Below, piece after piece: positions 11,183-52,200 of a stretch of DNA of 64,000 nucleotides. The DNA is taken from positions 102,858,001 through 102,922,000 of the forward strand of contig OZ024741.1 in assembly GCA_964016885.1 (NCBI GenBank), written 5' to 3'. This DNA is from Eledone cirrhosa. Its lineage: Eukaryota. The first letter of the stretch is position 1. Each line of letters opens with the position of its first letter. The notes below the pieces were generated by a model. That model had not been told where the DNA came from. It ran no database searches and worked only from the letters and a program-made list of their open reading frames with translations. The translations under genes and the position numbers were made by a program.

Positions 11183-11239
<57 letters not shown>

Positions 11240-11405
11240 GGGAAGAAGACGCACGAGGTGACGGAGGTCATGAAATCGCTCCCGTAAGTTTTGAATTTTT
11301 AACATATTTAAATCATTTGTGAAATAACAACTCTTAGTACAAATGCTACGTAAAGCACCCGGCTTGAGCCCCAAAAAAATTCGGACCCAAAATATATTGT
11401 TATAA

Positions 11406-12054
11406 GGCTCAAATATTCAAATATTCAACTTTGTATTGTACACTGTATATCAAAAAAAAAAAAAATGGCTATAAATGGAAGAAGAAGAACCCCCCCCCCC
11501 TCCTCTCCTCTGGCTACACTATATAGGACAGCTAAACTCACCAACACCAGAAACTAGATACACCACCCACCCCATCATCCCTGTACACTAAACACAACAG
11601 CATTTTCACCTTCACCGCCACCGCTCACTACGGCCATCATTACCACCACTATCCCATCACCGCCGCCACCACCCCTTGACTCCTTCACTGCTGCTGCCAC
11701 CGCTACAGCACCATCACTACAGTAATACGGCTCAAATATTCAAATATTCAACTTTGTATTGTACACTGTATATCCAAAAAAAAAAATAAAATGGCTATAA
11801 ATGGAAGAAGAAGAACCCCCCCCCCCTCCTCTCCTCTGGCTACACTATATAGGACAGCGAAACTCACCAACACCAGAAACTAGATACACCACCCACCCCA
11901 TCATCTGTGTACACTAAACACAACAGCATTTTCACCTTCACCGCCACCGCTCACTACGGCCATCATTACCACCACTATCCCATCACCGCCGCCACCACCC
12001 CCTGACTCCTTCACTGCTGCTGCCACCGCTACAGCACCATCACTACAGTAATAC
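11406..12054 (+). repeat. Tandem duplication (~325 bp x2) in the A1 leader
   Basis: 11406-11728 is nearly identical to 11729-12054. Confidence 0.95.
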
Positions 12055-12625
12055 GGTCGCATCACCGCCACCACTGCCTCGGTATCGACATCACCACCAC
12101 CACTGTCTCAGTATCGCCAACGCCGCCAGTCTCTGCTGGCTACCACTTCCACATTATAGAATTCCTACTACTAACAAAGAGGAAGGCATCAAAATATATA
12201 GATAGACTCAAAAGAAAAAAGAAAAAACAAACAACAAAAGCAGCACAGCAACAACAGTAAAAAACGAGAAAAACAGAGAAAAACAAAAACAAAAAAAGAA
12301 ACCCCAAAAACGTAAAGAAAATAAGAATGAAGAGAGAAGCAGGCGGACGGACAGAGAAGAGGGGGGAAAAAGTAAAACTTAAAAAACAAAAACTAAGTCA
12401 GACATTCGAATACTACATTACAATGAAACTTATGCTTATTCATTTTTGGGGCCCTTTCTGCCCGTGTGTTTGTTTGTTTATGTGTGTCCGTATACAGCGT
12501 GGTGATAATGCCACACAAGGGCCAAGTGGGATGGCGGATCCACAGATGGCTATGTAAACATACATTCGCCAATCCTCGATAAGAGTGTTTAAATATCGAA
12601 CATAAACAGTTCGAATAACGGTGAA

Positions 12626-15600
12626 ATGGAGACTAGAACGTCATGTGACAGACTCTCACCCAACAGGTGCCCCCTGGCTCAGCAGCAGGAACCTGACTGT
12701 CAACCAAATACTGCTGATGTTGGAGGAAGAAGAAGAAGGAAAGGGGCCAGAACCAACTGGACGAAAGAATTGAATAGAACTGTTATGCAATGCTACCTGA
12801 AAAGTAACCCCAAGGAGAGGGGCTACAGGAGACGGATGCATAACATCTGGAACGAGATTGGTTTATTTAAATTAGATGAACAAAAATTGGCCGGGCAGGC
12901 TCGGGTAATAAGAACTAATGGGTGGATAAGCGAGCTGGAACTGGAGGAACTGAGCAGAGAGAATGGCTTGGAGATGGCGGGTGTATTATGCCAGACAAGC
13001 GAGCCGGCGGGAAATGAAGGTGAGGAGGTCCTGAGAACGGAGGAACCACCCGAAGCAGACAATGATCTGAATACTGAGATAAATAATACCTGGAACAGAG
13101 ATACGGCCACTGAGGAGATGAATGCTGACGGGCTAGGACAAGATTCGGTTGACATCCTAAATTTAGTGGTAGATGAGTTGAACAATGATAGTGGGAGACC
13201 TATGAACCTAAGATTTGTAGACAGGAAAAAGTTAAAAGAAACAACAGCTAAGGTAAACAAAGTCATCCCATACCTTGAGGCGAGGAGTCTTCACCAGTGC
13301 AACAATATCCTCAAAGCAACAGCAAATACGGTGAGGAAACTACTTGGTATAAAAGCGAGAGGAAACAACAGACAAGAAAGAGCAGAGCCGTGGTGGAAGA
13401 AGCGACTGAGTGGGCAAATCGGGGAAATGAGAAATGACATAGGAAAGCTTGAGTCACTACTGAATGGGACACTAAAAAACATAGGCACTAAAAATAGACT
13501 GGAAATAAAATACAAAACTAGGAGTAAAAAGCTAAATATTATCATAGAGGAATTGAAGCAACGCATTGTAGCAAAGAGTGCCAAAATCAGGCGATACGAG
13601 AACAGAGTCAGTCAGTATAAACAGAACCGCATGTTCGACAACAACCAGAAGATGCTGTTTGGACAGCTTGAGGGGAAAGAAAGAGGCAACGACTTGATCC
13701 CTGGGGCGGAACAAGCTAAAACATTCTGGAGAGGAATATGGGAGCAGGATGTTAGACACAATGCCCAGGCAGGGTGGATTGAGACAGTACAGAGGGAGAT
13801 CGGTGAGCAGGCACAGCAACAGACTGATTTGAGTATCACAGTTGAAACTCTTAAGGGGCAAGCCAAAAAACTAACCAACTGGAAATCACCAGGCCCAGAT
13901 GGTGTGCAGGGGTATTGGATTAAACATTTAACATCCCTCCACCCGAAGCTGACGGCCATGTTCAATGACTGCTTGGTGTCGGGTGAGGTGCCAGAGTGGT
14001 TGACAAAAGGTACCACAGTTCTGATAATGAAAGACCGAATCAAGGGTAATGATGTTACCAACTATAGACCTATCACATGTCTGACGGTAATGTGGAAACT
14101 GTTGACGAGCATTGTGTCTGAGGAAATCTACCATCACCTCCACACAAACAACTTGTTGCCGGACGAACAGAAAGGATGCCGAAAGAAGTCACGTGGTACA
14201 AAGGACCAGTTGCTTATTGATAAGATGGTAATGGGGAATTGCAGGAGGAGACACACTGATCTTGCCTTGGGATGGATAGACTACATAAAGGCATTTGACA
14301 TGGTGCCTCATTCCTGGATCACCAAAAGCCTGGAGATCTTCAGGGTGGCAGATAACATCAGACAGTTGCTGGGCAGGAGTATGGGGTCCTGGGAGACAGA
14401 GTTGACATCAACTGGAGTATCCTTGGGAAGCGTGAATATCAAGAGAGGTATCTTCCAGGGAGATAGCCTGTCCCCTCTGTTGTTTGTCCTTGCCCTGATG
14501 CCCTTGACCATTATGCTGCGAAAAGTGAGAGCAGGATACAAGTTGGGAAGGGGAGAGCTTACCATCAATCACCTCCTCTTCATGGACGATCTTAAGCTCT
14601 TCGGGAAAAGTGAGAAGGAGTTGGATGTGCTTGTTGACACTGTCCGTATTTTCAGCAGTGATATATGTATGCAGTTTGGTATTGGTAAATGTGGAGTCAT
14701 TGTGATGGGGAGGGGTAGGTTGAGCAGAAGTAACGGGATCCAGATACCAACAGGTGAGATGATAAAGGAAATTGACTCTGACGAAGGATACAAGTATTTG
14801 GGCGTTCTGGAGGCTGATGGCATAAAGAACAAAAAAATGAAGGAATTGTTAAGAACTGAATACATTCGGAGAGTAAGGAGCGTATTGAAGTCACATCTGA
14901 ACAGCAGAAATGCCATAAGCGCAGTAAATTCCCGAGCTGTGTCTATTATTAGGTACAGTGCGGGAATTCTGAGATGGAATGTTGCTGAACAAAAAGAAAT
15001 GGATAGGAAGACTAGGAAGCTATTGACTATCTACAACATGTTCCACAAGAGGAGTGATGTCGATAGACTCTACCTAAGGAGATCTGAGGGTGGAAGAGGT
15101 CTTATCAGCATAGAGGACTGTGTTCAGATGGAGAAAAACAACCTATACAAATACGTGACCTATAGTAAGGAGCCAATGCTCAGAGCTGTACTGAAGGAGG
15201 GGACAGTAGGCCAGGGGATACCCAAGGAGGAAATAACATCAAGGAGGAAGAGCAGCCTTAAGGGAAAATCCCTTCATAGTACCTTCTTTGAGAAAACTGA
15301 ATTTAGAGATCCACAGACATGGAACTGGTTGAGAAGAGGAGACCTCAAAAAGGCTACAGAAGGAATGCTAATGGCTGCGCAGGAGCAGGCCCTCAAAACG
15401 AAGTGGTTGAAGCACCATATCTACAAGGAGGAGGCTAGCCCACTGTGCAGGATCTGTGGAGAGAGAGAGGAGACTGTGGCTCACACTGTGTCCGAGTGTA
15501 AACACCTAGCCCAGACCCACTATAAGGGCTGGAGACACGATGTGATGGGCAGGGTGATCCACTGGCACCTGTGCAAAGTAAACAATCTACCACATTCTGA

Positions 15601-16018
15601 GAAATGGTATGAGCATAGGCCAGAGGCGGTGATGGAGAACAGTCAGGTGAAGGTGCTGTGGGATTTTAGGATACAGACGAACAAAAAACTGGAACACAAT
15701 AGACCTGACCTGGTGGTTGTGGACAAAGAAAAAAGATCGTGCCTGATTGTGGATGTGGCCTGCCCGTTCGACACGAGAGTGCAAGAGAAGGAGAGGGAGA
15801 AAATTAACCGATACCAGGACCTAAAGTGGGAGGTGAAAAGGATTTGGAACTGCCATGAAGTCAAAGTGATCCCGATTGTCATAGGCGCACTGGGGACTAT
15901 CTCCAAAGGTTTCCAGGGATGGTTAAAGAAAATCGGCCCCTTCACGCTTTTTGGAACGCTTCAAAAGGCATGCTTGCTTGGAACGGCAAGAACCCTCCGA
16001 TACGTCCTGAATATCTGA
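12626..16018 (+). CDS. RT-RLE polyprotein of R4/Dong-like element (1130 aa, intact)
   Basis: N-terminal Myb-like RTNWTKELN..VMQCY..S.P.ERGYRRRM; RT motifs KSPGPDG, YRPITCL, DYIKAFD, GIFQGDSLSPLLF, FMDD; CCHC CRICGEREETVAHTVSEC; RHD; RPDLVV..D and K...Y of a PD-(D/E)xK restriction-like endonuclease. Confidence 0.95.
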   Translation: METRTSCDRLSPNRCPLAQQQEPDCQPNTADVGGRRRRKGARTNWTKELNRTVMQCYLKSNPKERGYRRRMHNIWNEIGLFKLDEQKLAGQARVIRTNGWISELELEELSRENGLEMAGVLCQTSEPAGNEGEEVLRTEEPPEADNDLNTEINNTWNRDTATEEMNADGLGQDSVDILNLVVDELNNDSGRPMNLRFVDRKKLKETTAKVNKVIPYLEARSLHQCNNILKATANTVRKLLGIKARGNNRQERAEPWWKKRLSGQIGEMRNDIGKLESLLNGTLKNIGTKNRLEIKYKTRSKKLNIIIEELKQRIVAKSAKIRRYENRVSQYKQNRMFDNNQKMLFGQLEGKERGNDLIPGAEQAKTFWRGIWEQDVRHNAQAGWIETVQREIGEQAQQQTDLSITVETLKGQAKKLTNWKSPGPDGVQGYWIKHLTSLHPKLTAMFNDCLVSGEVPEWLTKGTTVLIMKDRIKGNDVTNYRPITCLTVMWKLLTSIVSEEIYHHLHTNNLLPDEQKGCRKKSRGTKDQLLIDKMVMGNCRRRHTDLALGWIDYIKAFDMVPHSWITKSLEIFRVADNIRQLLGRSMGSWETELTSTGVSLGSVNIKRGIFQGDSLSPLLFVLALMPLTIMLRKVRAGYKLGRGELTINHLLFMDDLKLFGKSEKELDVLVDTVRIFSSDICMQFGIGKCGVIVMGRGRLSRSNGIQIPTGEMIKEIDSDEGYKYLGVLEADGIKNKKMKELLRTEYIRRVRSVLKSHLNSRNAISAVNSRAVSIIRYSAGILRWNVAEQKEMDRKTRKLLTIYNMFHKRSDVDRLYLRRSEGGRGLISIEDCVQMEKNNLYKYVTYSKEPMLRAVLKEGTVGQGIPKEEITSRRKSSLKGKSLHSTFFEKTEFRDPQTWNWLRRGDLKKATEGMLMAAQEQALKTKWLKHHIYKEEASPLCRICGEREETVAHTVSECKHLAQTHYKGWRHDVMGRVIHWHLCKVNNLPHSEKWYEHRPEAVMENSQVKVLWDFRIQTNKKLEHNRPDLVVVDKEKRSCLIVDVACPFDTRVQEKEREKINRYQDLKWEVKRIWNCHEVKVIPIVIGALGTISKGFQGWLKKIGPFTLFGTLQKACLLGTARTLRYVLNI

Positions 16019-16104
16019 GGCTGCAGGTAGTGGCTTGATATTCAATCCAACGGACTTTCCAGTTAACCAACATCAATGACTGAGATTCAAGGAATAACAA
16101 TAAC

Positions 16105-16974: not shown

Positions 16975-19900
16975 CACACTAAATATAACAGCCAGATAAC
17001 GGTAATTTCACCACCACCACCACCAATCCCAGCATCATAATAATTATTACTATTATTATTGTCTCAAGTTTTAACAAAATGTTTAATTCCAATTTTACGG
17101 GAATATGTCAACACAATATATATTAAACATACGCGACACAAACTCATAGATACTACATATCACAAAACTCAGTAACGACAACGCCACCGCCGCCACCACC
17201 TCATCCATCATTGCTACCACTATCACATCGCCGCCGCCACCACTCCTTCATTGCAACCACCACTGTTCCCCTGTTAACTTAAGAAAGGGGAAGGTGACGG
17301 TATCACTAGACAAGGGAGAGGCTAGCAAAAGATATAAATAGATTGACTTAGTGACCTGGCCACCGGCCAAACGTCAACAAACTATGGCACTGCTGGCTCC
17401 CCCCTTCCTCACCAGCAATATAAAAAGCCCCAGCACCACCACCGATATAGCCAACAACAATAACAGACAACTTCAGCAAAAAGTATATTATATTATTGTA
17501 ATGCACTGGGTGATTGCTGGCCTTGTGCCTGGAGTGGAGACGGTTATTAATAATTTCATTCGTAAGCGACGTAATGCTCACATTAAGGAACCACTCATGA
17601 TAATAACAATTTAAAAAAAAAACAACAAAAAGAAAACCCCGTGACCAAGAAATACCGGGATGGCGGCCGGCGGGGAATAGCCGTGTCTCTAGGGGAGAAC
17701 GACCCCTCTAGTCTTGGTTGACACTCGTTCTAGAAGTGGTAACACGAAATGATTACCCCTTGGCGGATAAGGATAAAACGCGACAAAATAAAGTAAATGT
17801 CTAATGATAAAATCTCATACCGGATCGGCTGTCATCCGGGTAAAAAAGGGCCGCGTCCCTCAGAGAGGAACCAGACTGGGGTCGAAAAATCAGCTAATGG
17901 TTCAAACCTTCCCATCACTTCGGAGCTGGAGACCTCCCATAACCGGAATACTCCTACTGTTGGCCCTCCATGCTCACCACCAAGAAATCCAAAGAAAAAG
18001 AGAGAAAAATGGTCAAGGGAAGATAATAAAGAAGTCCTTGAGGCTTTCTACACTGCCATGTACTACCCATCAAATACATCGAATACAGAACAGACATATA
18101 TCAACTGGAAAAAGAAACATCCCGAAAACAGAGGCTATATTGACAGTAACAAACTAGCCAATATACGAAGAAATATTGTAAGAAAAAAGTTACTAACTGA
18201 TATAGAAATTGATCAGATCAAGCTATTAGCACAAAGTCAGCGACGGGGAAATGAAACATGTGTCAGTGAAAACGAGGTAAACTGTAACACTTCGAATCCC
18301 AGGGTTGGGGCGGAATCACTGGCAACAGAACAAATTAAAGAAAGGATCGAAAAAGTGGAGCGAGTGCATGCTCAAGATGAAACTCCAAATGAAAATAATG
18401 AGATCGTAAATGATAAAGAAATGAATGAGAATGAACTTGCCAACTTGAAGGATGAAATTATGATCGAATGGATGAAAATGAAAGTATCTGACATGGGGCA
18501 ACGAGACACCCTCCCTAAGATCCAGAACTCCAAACAGAACCAAAAGATAATACACAAGACTAACATAATCTCAAAAACATTATCATCACAAACAAACTAA
18601 ACATTACTGATTTAAATCATCTCTATTATGCAACGGCTAAAGTCACCACTCACTTATGTGGAGTGAAGATGAAAAAACAAAGGAATTCCCACAAGAAATC
18701 TACTTTGAAAGAGAACAGCAATCGCCAAATAAACCTTCTCCGATTTTAACAAACTATAAAGTAGGTGAACATGTTAAACAAACTAAACTTAGAAAATTGA
18801 AAAGAAAGTACAGTATAAAATCAACAAGTGACATAGACATGCTGATAGAAATAATCAAGCAAAAAGTGTCGGCCAAAGCTGCTCGTATAAGGCGCTTTGA
18901 AAAACGATCTAGATTCTATAAGGACAATAATATGTTCAAAAACAACCAAAGAAACTTCTACAGAAAAATTGGTAAGTCAACAATAACTGCTAAATCAATA
19001 CCACCCAAGAACGAAGTACAAGAATTCTGGGCAAAGATCTGGACCGAAGAAAAAGTTCATAAAATACATGCCCCATGGATAGACAGACAAATGAAAGATA
19101 CAGCTCACCTTGAGGAACAAATATGGGAAAATATAACTGTTGAACAGTTGCGCTTGGCTCTAAGAAAAACCAGCAAATGGAAATCCCCAGGAAAAGACAA
19201 AATACAAAACTTTTGGATAAATGCCTTCACAGAGTCTCATGAGCTGTTAGCCCAACTTTACAATGAAATAGTTAAGGAGCCAGAAAAGATACCATCATGG
19301 CTAGTTAACGGCATTACATTCCTGCTTCCGAAGAATGATGAGACAAACAATCCCAAAAATTACAGACCGATAACTTGCTTGACCACAATGTATAAAATGT
19401 TAACATCAGTCCTAACTGAATACACATATGACCACCTGATAACAAATGTCCTATTTCCCATTGAGCAGAAAGGGTGTAAACGAGGCTCATATGGCTGTAA
19501 GGATCAGCTTTTGGTTAACAAAATGATACTGGAAGATTCTCATAATAGACACAAAAATCTATCAATTGCTTGGATAGATTATTAAAAAGCATTCGATAGT
19601 TTGCCACACAGTTGGATTGAAAAATGTTTAGAGATTTTCAAAATATCCCCCGTTGTCAGGAGGTTTTTGTCATTCAGTATGAAGACATGGAAAACTACAC
19701 TCCTTTTGAATAGTGAAACAAAATCACTGGAAGCTGGAGAAGTTAATATTAATTGTGGAATTTTTCAGGGTGACTCTTTATCACCGCTTTTATTCTGCAT
19801 CGCACTTATACCATTAAGTAAAATGCTCAATGAAACAAAACATGGATATAAAGTCTATGACAAAACCATTAATCACTTGTTCTACATGGATGACCTGAAA

Positions 19901-25177: not shown

Positions 25178-25466
25178 AATAATAATAATAATAATAATAA
25201 TAATGATTTCTTTATTAACCACAAGGGTTTACATAAAGTAGACATTAAGGACAGTGCAGGACAATGCAGGACGGTACAAATGGGCATTTCTGCGTGTAAA
25301 AAAACAAAAACAGAGGATGTAACAAAAATAACAATGAAAATAACAATGAAAAATTGCCCAATAGGGGGGAGACTTCGGAGGGACATTTGTGGAGAAAGCC
25401 CAGTAAAAAGCCACAATGACCCTGACCACCAAGGCAAGTGCCCTCTCCCAGTTTTCCACCTTTAGT

Positions 25467-28400
25467 TTACAGATATATACTCAGAGTCGGCCCATTCACT
25501 CGGGCCATTCTTGCTTCTCTCACCCATCTTTCAACAAAATGCTGGGAAGAGAGCACTTCCTTCTCTACTCTGATTTTCCTTTTCAAATGAAATTTGAAAA
25601 AGTCAATCAGAGCATCACCGAAGAGGTAAGTGCTCGTCTTCAGCCCTTTCAAACGTGTCCACCATACTATCTCTTTCGCCATGGCCACCAGACAGATAAA
25701 AACTGCCTGCCCTTCCCGGCTAAAGGAGGAGGGCGGGGCAATCCTCACGATAGACTCAGATGATAGCTGGATCCGTCCTAAACGCGACAGCAGGTGTTCG
25801 ACATAAACCCACAAGTCAGCAATTTTCGGACACTGGACGAGTGCGTGCAGGACGGTTTCGTCGCCCTGCGCGCATCTCGGACATGCCCGGCTGACGGCAC
25901 CTCCATGCCTGTAGAGTTTATCCCGAACTGGCAAGGCTCCTCGGTAGCACTGCCAGGCCAGAGATTTCTGGAAGTTGTCCATAGGCCCTGGCCCGAAAGT
26001 TCTTCCGAAGAGATTGGCTAGTTGATTTTCGTCGACGCCTAGAGTTTCCCCAAGTACGTCGTCGCTCTTCCCCTCCACTAATCCTCTATAGAACGCCGAG
26101 GTGGAGTTTCCACCGATCACATTGCCCGATTGGTCGAGGGCTGTGAGCGCCTGAAGACATTCCAGTCTCCAGGCGCTCCCTCTCGGTCTTCGCTTGACCC
26201 AGGACTGCAGCTCCGTCAAGGAAACGAGCTGGGGAAAAACGCGTCTAGCAAACGGCGACCACACCTGATCACCGTCGAGGAAGAGGTGGAGATGTCGTAG
26301 CCTGAGCGCGTGCCTGCGCATCATCAGCCACGGCATGCCCAGCCCTCCACGCAGCGGGTGTTGACAACAGATGGACCGCCTGACCATCGGAGCACGTCCC
26401 TTCCACAAAAAGCGAAAGAGCAAACGCTCCAGCGCAGTCAGGCGAGGCTTAGGACAAGGTACGACGGTTAGGCGGTAGCAGATGACAGACGCGATGTACG
26501 CGTTAGCCACCTCCGCTCGACCTTTCAGGGATAGCTTCCTCTCCGCCCATTTCTGGGTGAGAGAAGCCACCCTGCTCGTCACCTCGTCCCAGTTTTTGTC
26601 CGTCTGGAGGTCCGGACCGAACCAGACCCCTAGCAATTTAACCGGTCCGTCCGTCCAGCGCCCGACGACGCTGTTGGACGGCATGGACCTGCCTCTCCAG
26701 GTGCCGAGCTGCAGGCCCACTGACTTTTCCTGGTTGATCATTGCTCCTGTCACCGCTTCGTATTCTCTTAGTGTAGTGCCGATCGCCTCGATGTGTTTGG
26801 CGTTCGACACCACTACAGTGACATCGTCCGCATATGCTGACACGGATCTTCCGCATCCTAGTTCGCGCGGGACTCCCCTCAACGTCTCCAGTTTGTGCAG
26901 TAATGGCTCGAGAGTCAATACGTACAAGAGGGACGAGAGGGGACATCCTTGGCGGACCGAGCGCATGATGTTGAACGGTTCCGACAGGTGACCGTTCACT
27001 CTCACCACAGAGCAGATGTCGCTGTGCATGGCAGCGATCCAGCCTCTGAAGACGGGCCCAAAGCCAGCCGCCCTCAGGACTGCCGCTAGGTAACGATGGT
27101 CGACCCTATCGAAAGCTTTCGACTGATCTAAATTGATCAAGGACCCACCCGTGCCAGGTTCCCTAGCTACCCTCTCTACGATGTATCGCATGAGGTGGAG
27201 GTTGTCGTGGATGGATCTGTCGGGAATGGCGCATGTCTGCGCCTCTCCCACCAGACCACCAACGACAAGCGCCAACCTCTTTGCTAGCACCTTGGCCAAA
27301 ATCTTAAACTCTGTGTTTAGCAGAGTTATGGGCCGGAAATTGTCTATGTTATCCCCCTTGTTCGGATCCTTTCTCAGCAGTGCCACCGCTCCTCGGCTCA
27401 CAGAACTGGGAATTCTCCCGTTCTGTTGCCAGTTGCAGTAGACGTCCGCCAAGAGGCCTCCGAACAAGTCTGGCATCTGTACGTAAAGTTCATAGGGCAG
27501 ACCATCCAAACCAGGCGATTTACCCCTTGTGCAGCCAGTCATTGCCTCCCGTACTTCAGCGGCTGTTATCGGCTTTTCGCAACACTTCGCCTCAGTGGCC
27601 GAGAGCCGCGGCAGTCCGTCGAGGTAGACACTAAAGTCCATCCCTCTACCCGGCCCCCCGCTGCCCCCGAACAGCTGAGCGAAGTGTCGCTGAAAAGCTT
27701 CACACATTTGCCCGGGATCGAGTAGCATGCGCCCGTCGTGGTCCACCAAAGACCGGATCGTGGCTTTGTTGCCACGACGCGCCTCCGCCACTCGGGCCCA
27801 TTGAACGGCTTTCGTCCCCTCGTGTCTGAGAGCACGCACCCTAGCTCTGACAACGCAGCCTTCGTGCTTTGCATTGAAGAATTGGTCAAGGGCCAATTTC
27901 GCCGCAAGCACGTCGGTCGCAATGCCTTTGCTAAGCGCCTCGTCTAATTTTCTAACTAGTTCTCCCTCTGCTCTATTTTTCTCTATTGCTAAAGCCTTAC
28001 TAAACCTAATCGATTCTATTCTAATCGCTCTTTTCAGAGCAAACCACCACTTGTTGTTGACGATGGCCCCCGTCAACGCCCGCTTAACTAGTTCGCTAAT
28101 CCGGTCTCTGTAGGCCTTGCGCGCTGGTAAGGACGCGTTTAGCTTCCAGTAGCCGGGTCCTCGTCTATGAAGCCTATCTAAGTCAAGCACACAGGTCACG
28201 AATTTGTGGTCCGTGTAGCTGACTATCTTGAATTGTGGACAGCCTATGCTAGACCTATCTATTTCCCTACAAAATACTCTATCTAGATATGATCTGGATG
28301 ACCCTATGCGGTTTGTCCAAGTCCACATTGGCACATTCGGGAAATCCAATCGGTACCTGTCAGACAGTTCAAAACGCCTGAGCAGGTTGGTGAGGCTCTT

Positions 28401-28886
28401 GCACCCTCCACCCCTATCCGCTAATCCCACACAGTCCCAGCGTGCATCTAAGATCCCGTTCCAGTCGCCCACTAACACTAAAGAGCGGGACGTTCCAAGA
28501 AAGGTCTCCAGACGCCGGAAGAAATCAGGCCGCCCTGCTCCTGTCGGGGCATAGACGGCCACTAGCCTGAAAGCTTGCCCGTCTCCGCTGGTCACGTCCA
28601 GCACCACCAGCTTACCCTCTGGGTCCAGGAAGATGGCCCGTATGGCGAGATCCAAACCTCTCCGAAAAAGCACAGCAACTCCTCCACCGGATCCAGGACG
28701 GCTGGGAGATGCGTACACATCGTAGCCGCCGAAGATCGGTGCGAAGGCCCGTGCTTCGGAGATTCTGGTCTCGCTGATGGCCACTACATCTATGTTTAGT
28801 GACCTGAGGTCGTTGAGCAGGTGACCCTGCTTCCATGACGACCCCAAGCCACGCGCATTTATGCTGCCTATTCTGAGTGAGGTCAT
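25467..28886 (-). CDS. ORF2 APE-RT-zinc knuckle protein (1139 aa, intact)
   Basis: APE motifs SINARGL, ISETR, VYAP, GDWN, SYLDRVF, YTDH; RT motifs KSPGLDGLP, FRPITLLNTEFKILAK, LDQSKAFDRV, VRQGCPLS, YADD; C-terminal CPRC...ETVLHALVQC. Confidence 0.95.
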   Translation of the reverse strand: MTSLRIGSINARGLGSSWKQGHLLNDLRSLNIDVVAISETRISEARAFAPIFGGYDVYASPSRPGSGGGVAVLFRRGLDLAIRAIFLDPEGKLVVLDVTSGDGQAFRLVAVYAPTGAGRPDFFRRLETFLGTSRSLVLVGDWNGILDARWDCVGLADRGGGCKSLTNLLRRFELSDRYRLDFPNVPMWTWTNRIGSSRSYLDRVFCREIDRSSIGCPQFKIVSYTDHKFVTCVLDLDRLHRRGPGYWKLNASLPARKAYRDRISELVKRALTGAIVNNKWWFALKRAIRIESIRFSKALAIEKNRAEGELVRKLDEALSKGIATDVLAAKLALDQFFNAKHEGCVVRARVRALRHEGTKAVQWARVAEARRGNKATIRSLVDHDGRMLLDPGQMCEAFQRHFAQLFGGSGGPGRGMDFSVYLDGLPRLSATEAKCCEKPITAAEVREAMTGCTRGKSPGLDGLPYELYVQMPDLFGGLLADVYCNWQQNGRIPSSVSRGAVALLRKDPNKGDNIDNFRPITLLNTEFKILAKVLAKRLALVVGGLVGEAQTCAIPDRSIHDNLHLMRYIVERVAREPGTGGSLINLDQSKAFDRVDHRYLAAVLRAAGFGPVFRGWIAAMHSDICSVVRVNGHLSEPFNIMRSVRQGCPLSSLLYVLTLEPLLHKLETLRGVPRELGCGRSVSAYADDVTVVVSNAKHIEAIGTTLREYEAVTGAMINQEKSVGLQLGTWRGRSMPSNSVVGRWTDGPVKLLGVWFGPDLQTDKNWDEVTSRVASLTQKWAERKLSLKGRAEVANAYIASVICYRLTVVPCPKPRLTALERLLFRFLWKGRAPMVRRSICCQHPLRGGLGMPWLMMRRHALRLRHLHLFLDGDQVWSPFARRVFPQLVSLTELQSWVKRRPRGSAWRLECLQALTALDQSGNVIGGNSTSAFYRGLVEGKSDDVLGETLGVDENQLANLFGRTFGPGPMDNFQKSLAWQCYRGALPVRDKLYRHGGAVSRACPRCAQGDETVLHALVQCPKIADLWVYVEHLLSRLGRIQLSSESIVRIAPPSSFSREGQAVFICLVAMAKEIVWWTRLKGLKTSTYLFGDALIDFFKFHLKRKIRVEKEVLSSQHFVERWVREARMARVNGPTLSIYL

Positions 28887-28921
28887 GTTTAAAATAGAGT
28901 GGAAAAGATGGGAAAGACCAC

Positions 28922-31018
28922 TTACCGTACTTTTGGTAGAGGAGGGATGGTTTTTACATCCCTTTTCACTTGATCGTCTGGTGAAGGGACCGTTGAATCG
29001 TCCCTTCGGCTGGTCGTCGGCTCTTCTAAGAGAATGTCTGAATATACTCTTCGATTAATGGTTCCTCCTAGGTCCCTGAAATCACCAACTGCGTTGGGGA
29101 ATTTCGTTTTAATGTTTGTGTATTGTTTCTGTGCTATTTTTAGCAGTCTTATGTTAGTTGGCGTTTTGATTGGTGCTGGTATTATGTAGTCCTGTTGTGA
29201 AATGTCTGTGTGTTCAATTATGTAAGTCATTAGTTTCTTGTTGTGTGTATTTATTGCCGTGCATTTGTTTTTCTGGGGGTGGGGTGTGGTTCTGCTATTT
29301 TCTTGTCGTTGTTGCTGGGTGTGTGTGTTTTGTTGTTGTGTTTGCGATGTTGGTGCTTGTGGTGGTGGTGTTGAAGGTGTTGTTGGCGGTGGGGTTGTTG
29401 CCGGTGGTGATGGTGGTGCTGGTGTGGGTGGTGATGGTGTTGGTGGTGTTGCTGCTGTGGGTCTCTTTGCAGTAGACTTTACCCTTTTCTCATTTCTTTC
29501 CTCCCTTTTCAAAGGCGACGATGCGCTGCTTCTGCGTTTGTGCCTTCTTGAGACCTTTTGCCATCCCTCTCCCACCTCACACTCCATGTCTGATTCTGTA
29601 AGGTCGGGGAGGGGTACCAGCTCCACTCTTTCACTTGTTGTTGTTGGTGATGTTTGCACTGGAGTCTCTGTTGCAGCTGCATTTGGTATTGCTGTTGTTG
29701 TTGTTAATATTTCCACTGCTGCTGCTGTCTTTGATTTCCGTGGAGTGGGTATGGGTGCCACGGACCTATCATTCCTGGTTGCCGCTTGTCCTGTTGCTGG
29801 TAGCCGTGGAACCGGATTCGGGAGGAGGGGGGTTTTCTCCTTTCTCATGGTCTTCTCGTTGCAGAAGGCCCTGAGGTGAGTCTTCGATCCACAGCGAAAG
29901 CATTTCGGGCGTTTGCCCTCAACACTTATGGGCAGTTGAGTGCCGTTATCGAAGTCTATCACATCCGGGATAGCTTCGATGCACTCCTGGTTGGTTTGGA
30001 TTAGCATCTCAATGGAGGAGCCGACCCAATCTTCTCTTACTTTTTTCTGTACTTGCAGTACAGTTGTTTTGTCCTCGATTCCGACGAGGACAGACGCGGC
30101 CAGCCAAGAAGGGGTCATTCCGGGAGGGACGTGGGTCAGTTTGACCCTCACAATTTTTTGCCCGCAGTAGGAGGGCACCAACACCATTTCCTCGCTCCTT
30201 AGGGTCACTACTGATTGGGCCTTTGCCTCCTGGGGTGTGGCAAAAAGTACGTCTACGGTGGCGTATTTTTTGCCTCGGGTGATGTGCGTTTTCCTCTGCC
30301 ACACAGACCCCAAGGCTTTTTGTATTTGGGCCTCTGTGGCTCTTTCCACCCTACGGGATTTTGTACTTACTGTACGGTACGTGACCGTACAGTGCTCTTG
30401 GGTTTCGAAAAAATTTTTCGCTGCCTTGCAGATTGCTCGGTGTCCGTTCTTTGTCACCATCTTCTTCGCTTCCTCTAATTCCTCATTTGTTATGAGGATT
30501 GTTTCCAGGTTTTTCGCAATACCTGCAAATGAGATTGGTTTTTCTCTGCTGTTGTTGTTGTCGTCAGAGCTGCTGGTACTTTTGTTGTTGCTGCAGGTAC
30601 TACGACTACTGCCTCCGCCGCTGTTGCTGTGGTTGTTGTTGGTGTTGCTGCTGCTAATGCTGTTGTTGTTTATGCTGCTGGTGATGCTGTTGCGGCTGCT
30701 ACTGTTGTTTTCATTGTCACTGTTGCTGTTGTTATTACGGCTGCTACTGCTATTATTCCTGACGTCAGACGAATGAACTGGGTTTTCGTATTTCCCGCAC
30801 ACCTGTTTCGTCGCTGTCGTCGTCGTCGTGGAGAAACCTTGCACGCTTTGCACGAGACTTTTCTTTTCTTTCGTCGCTTGCGAAAGAGAAGGGAGGGAGA
30901 GAGACACATTTAAAGAAGGGAGGGAGAGAGACAATCTTCTCTCTGCTGTAGTGATGATTGAGGAAGAAGAAGACGGAATGAGTGGGAGTGACGTATGAAA
31001 TTTCTTTTTGGTAGCCAT
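28922..31018 (-). CDS. ORF1 type a (gag-like nucleic-acid-binding protein, 698 aa from MATKKK)
   Basis: CX2CX4HX4C knuckle CFRCGSKTHLRAFC; Ser/Asn-rich and Pro/Thr-rich low-complexity regions; lies directly upstream of ORF2. Confidence 0.9.
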   Translation of the reverse strand: MATKKKFHTSLPLIPSSSSSIITTAERRLSLSLPSLNVSLSLPSLSQATKEKKSLVQSVQGFSTTTTTATKQVCGKYENPVHSSDVRNNSSSSRNNNSNSDNENNSSSRNSITSSINNNSISSSNTNNNHSNSGGGSSRSTCSNNKSTSSSDDNNNSREKPISFAGIAKNLETILITNEELEEAKKMVTKNGHRAICKAAKNFFETQEHCTVTYRTVSTKSRRVERATEAQIQKALGSVWQRKTHITRGKKYATVDVLFATPQEAKAQSVVTLRSEEMVLVPSYCGQKIVRVKLTHVPPGMTPSWLAASVLVGIEDKTTVLQVQKKVREDWVGSSIEMLIQTNQECIEAIPDVIDFDNGTQLPISVEGKRPKCFRCGSKTHLRAFCNEKTMRKEKTPLLPNPVPRLPATGQAATRNDRSVAPIPTPRKSKTAAAVEILTTTTAIPNAAATETPVQTSPTTTSERVELVPLPDLTESDMECEVGEGWQKVSRRHKRRSSASSPLKREERNEKRVKSTAKRPTAATPPTPSPPTPAPPSPPATTPPPTTPSTPPPQAPTSQTQQQNTHTQQQRQENSRTTPHPQKNKCTAINTHNKKLMTYIIEHTDISQQDYIIPAPIKTPTNIRLLKIAQKQYTNIKTKFPNAVGDFRDLGGTINRRVYSDILLEEPTTSRRDDSTVPSPDDQVKRDVKTIPPLPKVR

Positions 31019-31231
31019 GTTTTTTTGTTTAAAATGAAATTTTGGGTACAAAACCCCAATAACTGGTTATTTAACCCCGAAGGGCCAAATAACGGACAGA
31101 AAGACCCCTCTCACGAGGAGGAGGGTGTCTTTATCAACAATTTGGTTCAAGTTTTAAACAATTTACAATTGTTTTAACGGTTAAAAATTACTATACCTTA
31201 CAGAGCCGAGCCTCCGTCAACCATGGCATTC

Positions 31232-34200: not shown

Positions 34201-37152
34201 GTCTATGAAGCCTATCTAAGTCAAGCACACAGATCACGAATTTGTGGTCCGTGTAGCTGACTATCTTGAATTGTGGACAGCCTATGCTAGACCTATCTAT
34301 TTCCCTACAAAATACTCTATCTAGATATGATCTGGATGACCCTATGCGATTTGTCCAAGTCCACATTGGTACATTCGGGAAATCCATTCGGTACCTGTCA
34401 GACAGTTCAAAACGTCTGAGCAGGTTGGTGAGACTCTTGCACCCTCCTTCCCTATCCACTAATCCCACACAATCCCAGCGTGCATCTAAGATCCCGTTCC
34501 AGTCGCCCACTAACACTAAAGAGCGGGACGTTCCAAGAAAGGTCTCCAGACGCCGGAAGAAAACAGGCCGCCCTGCTCCTGTCGGGGCATAGACGGCCAC
34601 TAGCCTGAAAGATTGTCCGTCTCCGCTGGTCACGTCCAGCACCACCAACTTACCCTCTGGGTCCAGGAAGATGGCCCGTATGGCAAGATCCAAACCTCTC
34701 CGAAAAAGCACAGCAACTCCTCCCCCCGATCCCGGGCGGCTGGGAGATGCGTACACATCGTAGCCGCCGAAGATCGGTGCGAAAGCCTGTGCTTCGGAGA
34801 TTCTGGTCTCGCTGATGGCCACTACATCTATGTTTAGTGACCTGAGGTCGTTGAGCAGGTGGCCCTGCTTCCATGACGACCCCAAGCCACGCGCATTTAT
34901 GCTGCCTATTCTGAGTGAGGTCATGTTGAAAAGGAGTGGAAAAGATGGGAAAGACCACTTACCTTACTTCTCGTAGGGGAAGGACGGCTTTTCCATCCTT
35001 TTCACTGCTTGTGGCCTCCTCAGGAAGGATGTCCTTATAAATCCTCCTGGAGAGTGCTTGTCGGAAGTCTCCGATGTCTTTGGGGAATTTTTGTTTTAGT
35101 GTCATGTACGTTTTCTGTGTGATGCGAGTGATTTGTATGTGTGGAGGTGGTGTGAATTTTGGGGTTGTTGTGTAGTCTTTTTCTGTGATGCTGGTGTTGT
35201 GTTGGATGTAGTGTAATAATTGCTTGTTGTTCAAATTTAATGCTGTGTAGTGTGTATCGTTTTGGTTGTTTTGTTTTGTTTGCGTTTGTTGTGGGTTTGT
35301 TTCTGTTTCGCATTTTGGTGACTTTTGTGGTGTAGGTGATGGTGGTGTTGGAGTTAATGATGGTGATGGTGTTGGTGTTTGGGTTGATGGGGTTGATGAT
35401 GCTGGTGTGGATGGTGGCATATCTGTCCTAACTTTTTTGTTTCTTAGTTTATTTGTTTCCCTCTGTATTTTGTTTTTGGAGGGGGAAGGAAGAGAATTTT
35501 TTCTTTTTTGGTTTCATTTTTCTTCTTCCGGATATCGTTTCCCACTCCTCGTCGTCACAATCTGTCTCCAGTTGTGATAGGCCGGGGAGTGGAAAATCCT
35601 CCACAGCCGTTAGTTTTGGTTGTGGTGTGGTGGATGGTGTAGGCGCTGGTGCTAGTTCTGAAGCGTTGGGTGGTGGTGGTGTTGGTTTTGCTGGTGGTGG
35701 TAGTGGTGTTGGTTTTGCTACTGTTGCTGGGGTTGTTGCTGTTATAGTTTCTTCTGTTGTTGCTGCTACAGTTGTTGCTGCCATCTCTGCTACTGGTGGT
35801 GTTGATGGTTGTGTCACTGTGGTGGGTAGGAGAGGTGGCCTCAACCTTTTAGCCTGAGGGCAGAAAGCCCTTAGGTGGGTTCCTTCACCACAAACGACAC
35901 ACCTAGGTCTTCTGCCCTCGACAATTACCGTGAGGTGGCTGCCGTCAGTGAGGTCTATTACCTCTGGGATCTCCTCAATGCTTTTTTGGTCCGCTTGGAT
36001 CAGGAGCTCCATCCCAGATCCGGACCAGTTTTCCTGCTTTTCTTTTGCTACTGCTATTATTTTCGTGTTGGCTTCGATGCCGGCGAGGACAGCCGCTATT
36101 AGCCAGGGAATTTCGATGGCCGGTGGAACGTGGGTCACCCTGATCTTTACGAGTCTCTGGCCACAATAGCTTGGGACGAGTGTGAGGTCGTCACTTTTTA
36201 ATGGGGCTATGGAGTGTTCTCTAGCCTCCTCTGGTGTTTCAAAGAACACATCCACGGTTCCATACTTTTGCCCACGTCTGATGTGGGTTTTTCTTGCCCA
36301 CACATGTCCCAAATCTTTTTGGATTTGGGACTCGGATGCCCGTTCCACTCGGCGCGATTTTACATTTATTGTTCTATACGACACGATGCACAGGCGCCGA
36401 TGCTCCATTTTATTAGGTGGGGGGGGGGGGGCTGACCCTGTACCCATCTTTCTTTACCATTTGTTTGGCATTTTCTAAATCTTCTTGAGTTACCGTGAAC
36501 GCTTCGAATTGTTTTGCTACGATGGCGAAACTGAGGGTCGGTTTTATAATGTCATTGTTGTTGTTGTTGCTATCGTTAATATTAATTTTAGTTTCAGTTG
36601 TGATGGTGACGTCAGTCGTCTTTGGTGGGGAAGAGTCCATTTTGCTTGATTTCATTTCGTCATCACGAGTTAATTTATTTTTTTCTTCTTTTGTTTCTGT
36701 TGTCGCGGTGGTGGTGGTGGTGGTGGTTGTCGCGGTGGTGGTGGTGGTGGAGGCTTTAACACCTGCAGTCATTGGTAATGGCGGGAAATGAATGTCTGCC
36801 TGAGACAAATTTAAAATGTTGCTACTGCTTATATTTTTTTTTGTGTTGGCAAACGTAGTAACATTTACAATGGTGGTGTCGGTGTGAGGTGTTATTTTGT
36901 GAGGAAGGCTTTCAGCTGCTTCGTGCAGAGGTGAAGTAGCCATTTTTTTTCAAAGAAATTGTTTGATAATAATAAAAGTTAAAATTTGGGGCACAAGGCC
37001 CCAATCTTTTTAGGTGTCCTTTTCGGAAAACAATGTACGTGTGCTTATAAACAGTTAACAATAAAATTTTCCATAAATGGCAATTTTTAAACAAACGGAA
37101 ATAACAAACCTTTGCGGAGCTCACGATAATACGATTTCCTACGTAGGTCGCC
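31262..37152 (-). mobile_element. Tx1-like element type b, full-length copy b1 (frameshifted)
   Basis: ORF2 split near 32910 with an early stop at 31563. ORF1 (ATG 36943, stop 34959) has frameshifts at G and T runs; knuckle CVVCGEGTHLRAFC. Confidence 0.92.
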
Positions 37153-37187
<35 letters not shown>

Positions 37188-37624
37188 TTTCTTTATTAAC
37201 CACAAGGGTTCACATAAAGTAGACATTAAGGACAGTACAGGACAATACAGGACGGTACAAATGGGCATTTCTGCGTGTAAAAAAAACAGAGGTTGAAATA
37301 AAATAACAAAGAAAAATTCCCCAATAGGGGGGAGACTTCCAAGGGACATTTGTGGAGAAAGCCCATTAAAAGACCACAGTGGCCCTGACCACCAGGGCAA
37401 GTGCCCTCTCCCAGTTTTCCACCTTTAATTTACAGACACATACTCAGAGAAGGCCCATTCATTCGGGCCATACTTGCTTCTCTCACCCATCTTTCAACAA
37501 AATGCTGGGAAGAGAGCACTTCCCTCTCTACCCTGATTTTCCTTTTCAAATGAAATTTGAAAAAGTTAATCAGGGCATCAACGAAGAGGTAAGTGCTCGT
37601 CTTCAGCCCTTTCAAACGTGTCCA

Positions 37625-40600: not shown

Positions 40601-40849
40601 CCGTATGTCAAGATCCAAACCTCTCCGAAAAAGCACAGCAACTCCTCCCCCCGATCCCGGACGGCTGGGAGATGCGTACACATCGTAGCCGCCGAAGATC
40701 GGTGCGAAAGCCTGTGCTTCGGAGATTCTGGTCTCGTTGATGGCCACTACATCTATGTTTAGTGACCTGAGGTCGTTGAGCAGGTGGCCCTGCTTCCATG
40801 ACGACCCCAAGCCACGCGCATTTATGCTGCCTATTCTGAGTGAGGTCAT
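37625..40849 (-). CDS. ORF2 APE-RT of b2 (1074 aa; premature TGG>TAG removes the last ~65 aa)
   Basis: Same motifs as a2 ORF2; the frame continues past the stop to 37430. Confidence 0.85.
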   Translation of the reverse strand: MTSLRIGSINARGLGSSWKQGHLLNDLRSLNIDVVAINETRISEAQAFAPIFGGYDVYASPSRPGSGGGVAVLFRRGLDLDIRAIFLDPEGKLVVLDVTSGDGQAFRLVAVYAPTGAGRPDFFRRLETFLGTSRSLVLVGDWNGILDARWDCVGLVDREGGCKSLTNLLRRFELSDRYRMDFPNVPMWTWTNRIGSSRSYLDRVFCREIDRSSIGCPQFKIVSYTDHKFVICVLDLDRLHRRGPGYWKLNASLPARKAYRDRISELVKRALTGDIVNNKWWFALKRAIRIESIRFSKTLAIEKNRAEGELVRKLDEALSKGIATDVLAAKLALDQFFNAKHEGCVVRARVRALRHEGTKAVQWARVAEACRGNKATIRSLVDHDGRMLLDPGQMCEAFQRHFAQLFGGSGGPDRGMDFSVYLDGLPRLSATEAECCEKPITTAEVRDAMTSCTRGKSPGLDGLPYELYVQMPNLFGGLLADVYCNWQQNGRIPSSVSRGAVALLRKDPNKGDNIDNFRPITLLNTEFKILAKVLAKRLALVVGGLVGEAQTCAIPDRSIHDNLHLMRYIVERVAREPGTGGSLINLDQSKAFDRVDHRYLTAVLRAAGFGPVFRGWIAAMHSDICSVVRVNGHLSEPFNIMRSVRQGCPLSSLLYVLTLEPLLHKLETLRGVPRELGCGRSVSAYADDVTVVVSNAKHIEAIGTTLREYEAVTGAIINQEKSVGLQLGTWRGRSMPSNSVVGRWTDGPVKLLGVWFGPDLQTDKNWDEVTSRVASLTQKWAERKLSLKGRAEVANAYIASVIYYRLTVVPCPKPRLTALERFLFRFLWKGRAPMVRRSICCQHPLRGGLGMPWLMMRRHALRLRHLHLFLDGDQVWSPFARHVFPQLVSLTELQSWVKRRPRGRAWRLECLQALTALDQPGNVIGGNSTLAFYRGLVEGKSDDVLGETLGVDENQLANLFGRTFGPGPMDNFQKSLAWQCYRGALPVRDKLYRHGGAVSRACPRCAQGDETVLHALVQCPSIADLWVYVEHLLSRVGPIQLSAESIVRIAPPPSFSREGQAVFICLVAMAKEIV

Positions 40850-40883
40850 GTTGAAAAGGAGTGGAAAAGATGGGAAAGACCAC

Positions 40884-42870: not shown

Positions 42871-43079
42871 TTTTTTTCAAAGAAATTTTTGGATAATAAT
42901 AAAAGTTAAAATTTTGGGCACAAGGCCCCAATCTTTTTGGGTGTCCTTTTCGTAAAACAATGTATGTGTGCTTATAAACAGTTTACAATAAAATTTTCCA
43001 TAAATGGCAATTTTTAAACAAACGGAAATAACAAACCTTTGCGGAGCTCACGATAATACGATTTCCTACGTAGGTCGCC

Positions 43080-49228: not shown

Positions 49229-52200
49229 GGAAGGGAAGCAGACGCACGTGGTGGATAGAAGGTCATGAAATCGCTCCCGTAAGTTTTTGATTTTTAACAT
49301 ATTTAAATAACAATTCTTAGTACAAATGATACATAAAGCACCAGACTCAAGTCTCAAAGTAATTCGGATCTATAATATATTGTTATATCGCTCAAATATT
49401 CAATTTTGTATTATACATTTTATATTCAAAAAAGAAAATGGTTATAAATGGAAGAAAACACCCTCTGTCAACACTATATAGAACAGCCAAATAACAGCAA
49501 TTTCACCAACACCAGAAACTAGATACACCACCTACCCCATCACCCCTCTGTGTACACTAAATACAACAGCCAGATAACGGCAATTTCACCACCTCCACCA
49601 CCACCAATCCCAGCATAATAATAATAATTACTATTATTATTGTCTCAAGTTTTAACAAAATTTTTAATTCCAATATTAAAAGAATATGTCAAAACATATA
49701 TTAAACATACGCGACAAACGCATAGATACACAGATGAAACAAAACTACAGTCTATTCAACAAAACTCAGTAACGAGAACGCCATCACTATAGTCACCGCC
49801 GCCACCACTCCATCCATCATTGCTACCACTATCCTATCACCGCTGCCACCACTCCTTCATTGCTACCACCACTATTCCCCCATTACCTTCTGTTAACTTA
49901 AGAAAGGGGAAGGTGGCGGTATCACTAGACAAGGGAGAGGCTAGCAAATGATATAACGAGATTGACTTAGTGACCCGGCCACCGGCCAAACGTCGACGAC
50001 TATCGCACTGCTGGCTCCCCCCTTCCCCACCAACAATAGAAAAAGCCCCAGCACCACCACCGACATAGCCAACAACAATAACAGGCAACTTGAGCAAAAA
50101 GTATATTATATTATTAATAATTTCATTCTTAAGCCACGCAATGCTCACATTAAGGAACCACTCATGATAATAACAATTTAAAAAACAACAAAAAAGAAAA
50201 CCCCGTGACCAAGAAATACCGGGAAGGCGGCCGGCGGGGAATAGCCGTGTCTCTAGGGGCGGACGACCCCTCTAGTCTTGGTTGACACTCGTCCTAGAAG
50301 TGGTAAAACGAAATGATTACCCCTTGGCGGATAAGGATAAAAAGCGACAAAATAAAGTAAATGTCTAATGATAAAATCTCATACCGGATCGGCCGTCACC
50401 CGGGTCAAAAAGGGCCGCGTCCCTCAGAGAGGAACCAGAATGGGGTCGAAAAATCAGCTAATGGTTCAAACCTTCCCATCAATTCGGAGCTGGAGACATC
50501 CCATAACCGGAATACTCCTACTGTTGGCCCTCCATGCTCACCACCAAGAAATCCAAAGAAAAAGAGAGAAAAATGGTCAAGGGAAGATAATAAAGAAGTC
50601 CTTGAGGCTTTCTACACTGCCATGTACTACCCATCAAATACATCGAATACAGAACAGACATATATCAACTGGAAAAAGAAACATCCCGAAAACAGAGGCT
50701 ATATTGACAGTAACAAACTAGCCAATATACGAAGAAATAGTGTAAGAAAAAAGTTACTAACTGATATAAAAATTGATCAGATCAAGCTATTAGCACAAAG
50801 TCAGCGAAGGGAAAATGAAACATGTGTCAGTGAAAACGAGGTAAATTGTAACACTTCGAATCCCAGGGTTGGGGTGGATTCACTGACAACAGAACAAATT
50901 AAAGAAAGGATCGAAAAAGTGGAGGGAGTGCATGCTCAAGATGAAACTCCAAATGAAAACAATGAGATCGTAAATGATAAAGAAATGAATGAGAATGAAC
51001 TTACCAACTTGAAGGGTGAAATTATGATCGAATGGATGAAAATGAAAGAATCTGACATGGGGGAACGAGACACCCTCCCTAAGATCCAGAACTCCAAACA
51101 GAACTCCAAACAGAACCAAAAGATAATACACAAGACTAACATAATTCTCAAAAACATTATCATCGCAAACAAACTAAACATTACTGATTTAAATCATCTC
51201 TATTATGCATCGGCTAAAGTCACCACTCACTTATGTGGAGTGAAAATTAAAAGACAAAGGAATTCCCACAAGAAATCTACTTGGCAAGAGAACATCAATC
51301 GCCAAATAAACCTTCTCCGATCTGACATAGAAATTTTAACAAACTATAAAGTAGGTGAACATGTTAAACAAACTAAACTTAGAAAATTGAAAAGAAAGTA
51401 CAGTATAAAATCAACAAGTGACATAGACATGCTGATAGAAATAATCAAGCAAAAAGTGTCGGCCAAAGCTGCTCGTATAAGGCGCTTTGAAAAACGATCT
51501 AGATTCTATAAGGACAATAATATGTTCAAAAACAACCAAAGAAACTTCTACAGAAAAATTGGTAAGTCAACAATAACTGCTAAATCAATACCACCCAAGA
51601 ACGAAGTGCAAGAATTCTGGGAAAAGATCTGGGCCGAAGAAAAAGTTCATAATATACATGCCCCATGGATAGACAGACAAATGAAAGATACAGCTCACCT
51701 TGAGGAACAAATATGGGAAAATGTAACAGTTGAAACAGTTAACATTTGGCTCTAAGAAAAGCCAGCAAATGGAAATCCCCAGGAAAAGACAAAATACAAA
51801 ATTTTTTGATAAATACCTTCACAGAGTCTCATGAGCTGTTAGCCCAACTTTACAATGAAATAATTAAGGAGCCAGAAAAGATACCATCATGGCTAGTTAA
51901 CGGCATTACATTCCTGCTTCCGAAGAATGATGAGACAAACAATCCCAAAAATTACAGACCGATAACTTGCTTGACCACAATGTATAAAATTTTAACATCA
52001 GTCCTAACTGAATATACATATGACCACCTGATAACAAATGACCTATTTCCCATTGAGCAGAAAGGGTGTAAACGAGGCTCATATGGCTATAAGGATCAGC
52101 TTTTGGTTAACAAAATGATACTGGAAGATTGTTATAATAGACACAAAAATCTATCAATTGCTTGGATAGATTATTAAAAAGCATTCGATAGTTTGCCACA

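Follow-up and report, generated by a model that had tools for sequence, protein, structure and literature searches.

The 5' leader carried by two families of Dong/R4-like retrotransposons (R4 below) in Eledone cirrhosa was probably acquired in a single ancient capture from a Tx1 element sharing their (AAT)n target, and is predicted to serve as an internal promoter. The stretch that was analysed, called the window, comprises 64,000 nt of contig OZ024741.1 in an assembly of 3.0 Gb. From 11.2 to 59.8 kb it consists of non-LTR retrotransposons nested at (AAT)n tracts. The elements and their coding parts are as follows, in window coordinates.

11184..11239, plus strand: (AAT)n target array, 5' of element A1.
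11240-16092: family A (restriction-like endonuclease, RLE; Dong/R4-like), copy A1.
12593..16018, plus strand: single ORF of A1 with RT, C-terminal CCHC and PD..D restriction-like endonuclease motifs.
11402..12056, plus strand: tandem duplication (326 bp) in the 1.1-kb spacer from uORF to RT ORF of A1, polymorphic between A copies.
49229-54157: family B (RLE), copy B2.
50361..51755, plus strand: start of the RT ORF of B2 (ORF broken).
28922..31018, minus strand: ORF1 of Tx1-like family Ta, with a central core, low-complexity ends and a CCHC knuckle; the core is 43% identical to that of Tb ORF1.
25467..29054, minus strand: ORF2 of Ta with APE endonuclease, RT and zf-RVT; Ta and Tb agree at 95-96% over this region and the 3' UTR.

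Families A and B have one ORF, in which RT is followed by CCHC and then by the PD..D RLE, and they lack APE (RVT_1 is the only Pfam match, and the other motifs were read in both). Their best PDB matches are R2 proteins, and they belong to the RLE (R2) group. Ta and Tb, on the opposite strand, have ORF1 and an ORF2 with N-terminal APE, RT and C-terminal Cys motif; they belong to the L1 group, and the best PDB match of their ORF2 is L1 ORF2p (E 1e-52). The two pairs of families therefore differ in their endonuclease, RLE in A and B as against APE in Ta and Tb. A and B are presumably Dong/R4 elements by their N-terminal motifs and their target. Likewise Ta and Tb are presumably Tx1 elements by target specificity and the CCHC ORF1; a homologue search with the Tx1-like ORF1 core returned nothing. 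Dong elements target (TAA)n, and the ends of the A and B elements adjoin (AAT)n arrays. Target-specific clades are known in both the RLE and the APE groups, Dong/R4 and Tx1 among them (PMC4640811), and Dong-R4 and L1-Tx1 elements were recently active in Octopus vulgaris according to passages of PMC13282606, in which promoter or UTR is mentioned 0 times. An Rfam search of the window at gathering scores gave no ribozyme or structured RNA in the array. Its sole match was a tRNA at 2658-2730 (RF00005, 62 bits), outside the array. Among the database homologues of the A protein, the 1,710-aa P0006 has an unusually high score and is possibly a duplicated or fused ORF.

The comparison between clades concerns the following 5' regions.

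11240..11471, plus strand: 5' leader of A1, collinear with the Tx1 5' UTRs and predicted to act as an internal Pol II promoter.
11278..11289, plus strand: conserved GCTCCC/GTAAGT block of A1 (the slash marks the splice boundary) with donor GT at 11284; A1 has no matching AG before the ATG.
11465..11557, plus strand: A-rich ATG of A1 at the position of the Tx1 ORF1 start, opening a 30-codon uORF only.
49229..49444, plus strand: 5' leader of B2.
49279..49434, plus strand: GT-AG intron-like segment within the B leader; B2 retains it unspliced, and it is precisely absent in L197/L282 and L201/L283.
31016..31231, minus strand: 5' UTR of Ta, copy a2, with the ORF1 ATG at 31018; other Ta copies start at 25177 and 49136.
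31066..31093, minus strand: hairpin (inverted repeat, 12 bp) of the Ta 5' UTR with UUCG as its loop; the fold was computed on L062, the matching copy, and equivalents occur in Tc, Td, Te and Tg.
36941..37152, minus strand: 5' UTR of Tb, copy b1, with the ATG at 36943; other Tb copies start at 43079 and 59730.

The first-pass annotation of this DNA had listed blocks common to the A1 leader and the Tx1 5' UTRs. By eye and in our alignments the blocks are present and collinear, and the ATG lies 225 (A1), 209 (B2), 213 (a2) and 209 (b1) nt from the 5' end, as it had claimed. Shuffles, composition-matched genomic windows and a further RLE family (C) were used as controls. With 1,000 dinucleotide shuffles, the control that the annotation had proposed, the A1 leader stands out against Ta (z 6.3, 0/1000) and Tb (z 6.1, 0/1000); the same type of test gave z 5.7 (0/1000) for B2 against Ta and z 2.8 (11/1000) against Tb. 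At cheap gap costs none of 1742 genomic windows exceeds the A leader against either Ta or Tb, and both matches are also above 10-nt local shuffles, while 220 of the 1742 do as well or better than the A leader against a third family, Tc. Strict gap costs weaken the match, with 8/1742 windows for A-Ta and 85/1742 for A-Tb. Over seven Tx1 families, the A leader scores z 4.3-6.9 against six and 0.7 against Tc, which is within the range of Tx1 against Tx1; after deletion of the donor hexamer and the A-run/ATG, z against those six is 2.7-4.9 for A and 1.5-4.9 for B. Global identity of the R4 leaders is 43-53% to the six families and 36-39% to Tc, compared with 38-46% for the unrelated control C, and the R4-to-Tx1 values resemble those between distant Tx1 families. 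The B-Tb similarity is weak and Tc shows none.

Profiles were searched in both directions. When a profile of 23 R4 leaders was run over about 280 kb, the three Ta 5' UTRs of the window were the top non-self matches, full length and in register, with only 8.6-10.4 bits (E 0.055-0.19). A profile built from Tx1 alone, with 11 UTRs not chosen by motif, scored six of the seven R4 leaders higher than any of the 200 kb of background among the 210 kb searched; their scores ran from 13.5 to 4.1 bits, with a best E of 0.0035, and the best background score was 3.8 bits. The leader it missed is the B2 copy of the window. With three motif-picked Tx1 UTRs added, all seven were found (best E 2e-6). The absolute scores are low and depend on gap costs, yet they exceed shuffles and background, and so on these alignments we judge the resemblance between R4 and Tx1 leaders to be real but weak. 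A common origin of the R4 leader and the Tx1 5' UTRs is likely from the sequence comparisons.

Family C has a (CATA)n target and 887 pattern matches, and is about 30-36% identical to A. The family (L224-L240, e.g. L227 and L238) is mostly 5'-truncated, and of 20 loci sampled two extend to the 5' end. Its 218-nt 5' UTR runs directly into the ORF and shows no similarity to any of the leaders (z -1.8 to 1.3). Since this unrelated family has its ATG at +219, a distance of 210-225 nt to the ATG is not specific, and the argument that had been drawn from this distance falls. The leader sequence blocks, on the other hand, are confined to the AAT-targeting families examined.

The genome was also searched for further Tx1 families and for a donor. 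The R4 leader motif has 1,912 matches genome-wide (control 0) and the Tx1 ORF1 motif 5,076. R4-like motifs sought behind a Tx1-type ATT flank recovered the families Te (4 places), Td and Tf; as these three were picked by motif, their support is partly circular. A query that combined the flank with an A-rich ATG some 190-220 nt further downstream, and contained no leader motif, gave 587 matches (control 1); the 30 loci sampled from them were all Tx1-like, 27 in one family, Tg/Te, whose 5' UTR bears TCGCTCC(C/A)GTAAGT near +25 to +38. Three targeted searches found no Tx1 family that matches the Dong leader closely, as the annotation had proposed to look for. Td, Te and Tf were considered as a close donor and rejected, being only 45-52% identical to the R4 leader. 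Leader diversity is deep in Tx1, with at least six families whose ORF1s are 27-65% identical to that of Ta, and shallow in R4, with 75-100% identity. As a side observation, locus L129 contains from about 1512 a Td-type Tx1 element in which the 5' UTR is tandemly duplicated (unit of about 190 nt) and ORF1 turns from Td-type to Te-type.

The idea that co-residents of one target exchange modules holds within each clade. Families A and B are 44-48% identical in RT, their ORFs have no DNA similarity, and the RT tree (35 rows, including 30 of the 119 database homologues considered, picked by identity steps) puts them into separate supported lineages. Nevertheless, the A1 and B2 leaders are 75% identical over the first 360 nt (378 aligned columns), and leader identity across the two divergent lineages is 75-90%. 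Among 30 leader loci, 24 were concordant, 2 unclassifiable and 4 leader/body mosaics: three with a B-type leader on an A-lineage body and one the reverse. The first three are full-length and mutually 94-95% identical, and they are a propagated chimeric R4 family. At locus L195 a full A element lies within a B leader in sense orientation, an example of how chimeras can arise. Within Tx1, Ta (25205-31231, minus) and Tb (37186-43079, minus) agree at 95-96% in ORF2 and 3' UTR and differ in 5' UTR and ORF1, a pattern that amounts to a recent swap of the 5' module; the ORF1s behind the Tg leader range from about 31% to 65% identity to Ta. Between the clades, the common origin of R4 and Tx1 leaders finds support and a close Tx1 donor does not. 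No same-strand junction from Tx1 to R4 was seen among the upstream flanks listed.

Two features are additions to the earlier reading, a splice donor and a lost hairpin. Twenty-one R4 copies lack the G of CCC/GTAAG: 17 have point changes and 4 have deletions up to just before the ATG. When the left breakpoint was allowed anywhere in 31 positions, the same 4 deletions alone were found genome-wide, each at the donor. In L197 and L201, which are on different contigs and have different downstream sequences, the join to AG/AAAATGG is exact (junction CCC/AAAATGG) and 168 nt are gone compared with the nearest unspliced copies. The neighbouring L195/L196 represent one event, in which the deletion ends 5 nt earlier, where the copies examined have no AG. 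L197, L201 and L196 continue as far as the 3' end of B and its AAT array, and L197/L282 and L201/L283 are full-length copies that lack exactly a GT-AG segment, as in the spliced integrated retroelements (SpIREs) of L1. Three events at 1 of 31 positions correspond to about 3e-5 by a rough uniform estimate. Since CCC/GTAAG is the starting point of all 4 deletions and AG the end point of 2, the leader contains an intron that is rarely spliced, and its donor is usable with an AG just before the ATG. Such a proximal AG is present in 13 of 14 B-type leaders examined and in 5 of 46 A-type leaders (41/46 are without it). Spliced copies make up about 0.2% of R4 (4 of about 1,900 motif matches), and none was found in Tx1 (Ta 0/23, Tb 0/4, 0 among 10 Tg matches). 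At 12440-12500 in the window there is a strong acceptor-like site (about 12496; an extended U/GU-rich tract with ACAG at its end), some 130 nt ahead of the A ORF. It could bound a candidate long leader intron; no A copy among 21 is joined to it.

A strong hairpin, whose sequence differs between the families, lies at about +135 to +170 in Ta, Tc, Td, Te and Tg (z -2.7 to -5.8), and five of five R4 leaders have none (z -0.8 to 0.4); these z values are the best of 15 windows and are inflated equally for all families. Tb, Tf and C are also without a strong hairpin in the windows tested. In the alignment the R4 leaders keep the letters flanking the lost hairpin. The ATG that opens ORF1 in Tx1 opens only a uORF of 18-30 codons in R4. 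The ACC-rich sequence that was said to follow this uORF is there; its reading as decayed ORF1 was not confirmed, and the proposed ORF1 stub, including the peptide at 49970-50060 of B2, gives only low-complexity matches. A tblastn search of Tx1 ORF1 against the R4 spacer left nothing after composition correction, and blastn of spacer against ORF1 reached 38 bits at best, against 37-43 for reversed controls, SINE pieces aside. An ORF1 profile on the R4 spacer gave 8.3 and 7.1 bits (reversed 2.7), which is marginal and confined to the low-complexity N-terminus.

We account for these observations by capture from Tx1. An RLE element may have landed behind a Tx1 5' end, in sense orientation and in a stretch rich in AAT, or the RLE reverse transcriptase may have switched template within the shared array. 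The Tx1 promoter would then have driven a chimeric RNA, which the RLE protein would have copied to its full 5' end, and the leader would later have passed between the R4 lineages A and B, as the mosaics show. The best-conserved part of the leader is +35 to +65, with the 5' splice donor. The parts related to ORF1 would have decayed in R4, so that the hairpin is gone and the ATG is left with a uORF. Since the donor is rarely spliced, unspliced RNA is likely the normal template for transposition, and the donor is likely retained as part of a promoter element or as a U1 site. The decayed R4 hairpin, the uORF-only ATG and the deeper diversity of Tx1 suggest the direction from Tx1 to R4, which leans on the decayed hairpin and on one distant outgroup, C (about 30-36% identical). 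The 5' ends are fixed in 30 of 30 top A matches, partly by selection of the matches, and this is consistent with the predicted internal Pol II promoter.

Three other explanations were weighed. Chance likeness of AT-rich DNA is highly improbable: single pairwise comparisons are weak at strict gap costs, but the similarity is repeated, collinear, in register with both the 5' end and the ATG, and missing from the controls, and the recovery of R4 leaders by the Tx1-only profile largely refutes it. Convergence is unlikely but deserves more weight. Host signals (a core promoter element, a 5' splice site, a T-rich intron-like stretch and an A-rich start context) would have evolved twice in 220 nt of AT-rich sequence, and indeed the strongest common block includes GTAAGT, a donor functional in B, family C, though unrelated, has a similar distance to its ATG, and overall identity is just a few points over the control. 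The similarity nevertheless survives removal of the donor and the A-run/ATG, family C and the Tx1 family Tc transpose without the blocks, and R4 retains the flanks of a hairpin that it no longer forms, as well as an ATG from which its ORF does not start.

A common origin with another direction or source, in which Tx1 obtained the leader from an R4 ancestor or both clades obtained it from elsewhere, for example from the first exon and intron of a host gene, is in our estimate somewhat less probable still. The distance of the R4 leaders to each Tx1 family is about that which separates distant Tx1 families, so no nesting of the R4 leaders in Tx1 is visible, and a short first exon, a GT-AG intron and an ATG right after the acceptor may be seen as resembling the 5' end of a host gene. 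Against this, the leader is deeply diversified in Tx1 (the six or more families with ORF1s at 27-65% to Ta) and shallow in R4 (75-100%), and the ATG and the hairpin are intact in Tx1 only. Capture from Tx1 is thus the reading that we prefer.

Related systems are known. That no case had been described, as the annotation put it, is too strong, because an RTE 5' UTR-like segment has been published in the coral R4-1_ADi and in Ingi-3_AC (Kojima 2018, PMC5786205). As here, 5' UTR sequence is common to very distant LINE clades, an R4 included; there, however, it is an internal piece of 45-68 nt (45 nt in the coral R4), whereas here all of the terminal 220 nt, +1 through to the ATG, is collinear, and the proposed donor and recipient have one target site. 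In mammalian L1, 5' UTRs and promoters are recurrently replaced (PMC7140322), which resembles Ta/Tb and A/B in that new 5' modules join a continuing RT lineage; that replacement stays in one clade, unlike a module common to RLE and APE clades with one target. In human L1, SpIREs are rare copies made from RNA that was spliced in the 5' UTR, and they amount to about 2% of full-length copies; overlap with a promoter (RUNX3) site explains why the donor persists, and the spliced copies lose promoter activity (Larson 2018, PMC5860796). The rare R4 copies likewise come from RNA spliced within the 5' leader; they differ in belonging to an RLE element in an invertebrate-type genome, at about 0.2%, with a donor conserved across clades. 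The literature searched, mostly main texts of open-access papers, contained no RLE and Tx1 elements with a whole leader in common, no promoter capture across clades and no RLE/Tx1 chimera, and passages of PMC8226300 and PMC8967140 contain nothing on cross-clade leader sharing.

A broader proposal is put forward tentatively, as one that we consider quite possible. The shared microsatellite would be an exchange point between LINE clades, at which an RLE element captured a whole Tx1 promoter-and-intron leader and rose to high copy number. The leader would circulate in R4 and Tx1, and its core would be a promoter-proximal donor or U1 site needed for transcription. The general view is that RLE elements depend on host read-through or on poorly known promoters. 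If the proposal is true, a complete internal promoter from an APE clade shows how an early-branching clade gains independent transcription, and a common target site breaks down clade boundaries. The roughly 1,900 leader copies, the chimeras, the acceptor-less A and acceptor-bearing B leaders and the spliced integrants form a ready set for asking whether a 5' splice site contributes to the working of a LINE promoter.

Two minor observations concern the B spacer. At 49616-49645 of the window it holds a remnant of (AAT)n followed by (ATT)n, possibly an old target junction from the assembly of the leader. In several B subfamilies the spacer contains a fixed 3' fragment, 50 nt long, of an abundant SINE-like repeat (window about 17500-17550; L033, L034, L040 and L060), and the tail of this repeat resembles the Tx1 3' end and a motif of the Tb 5' UTR.
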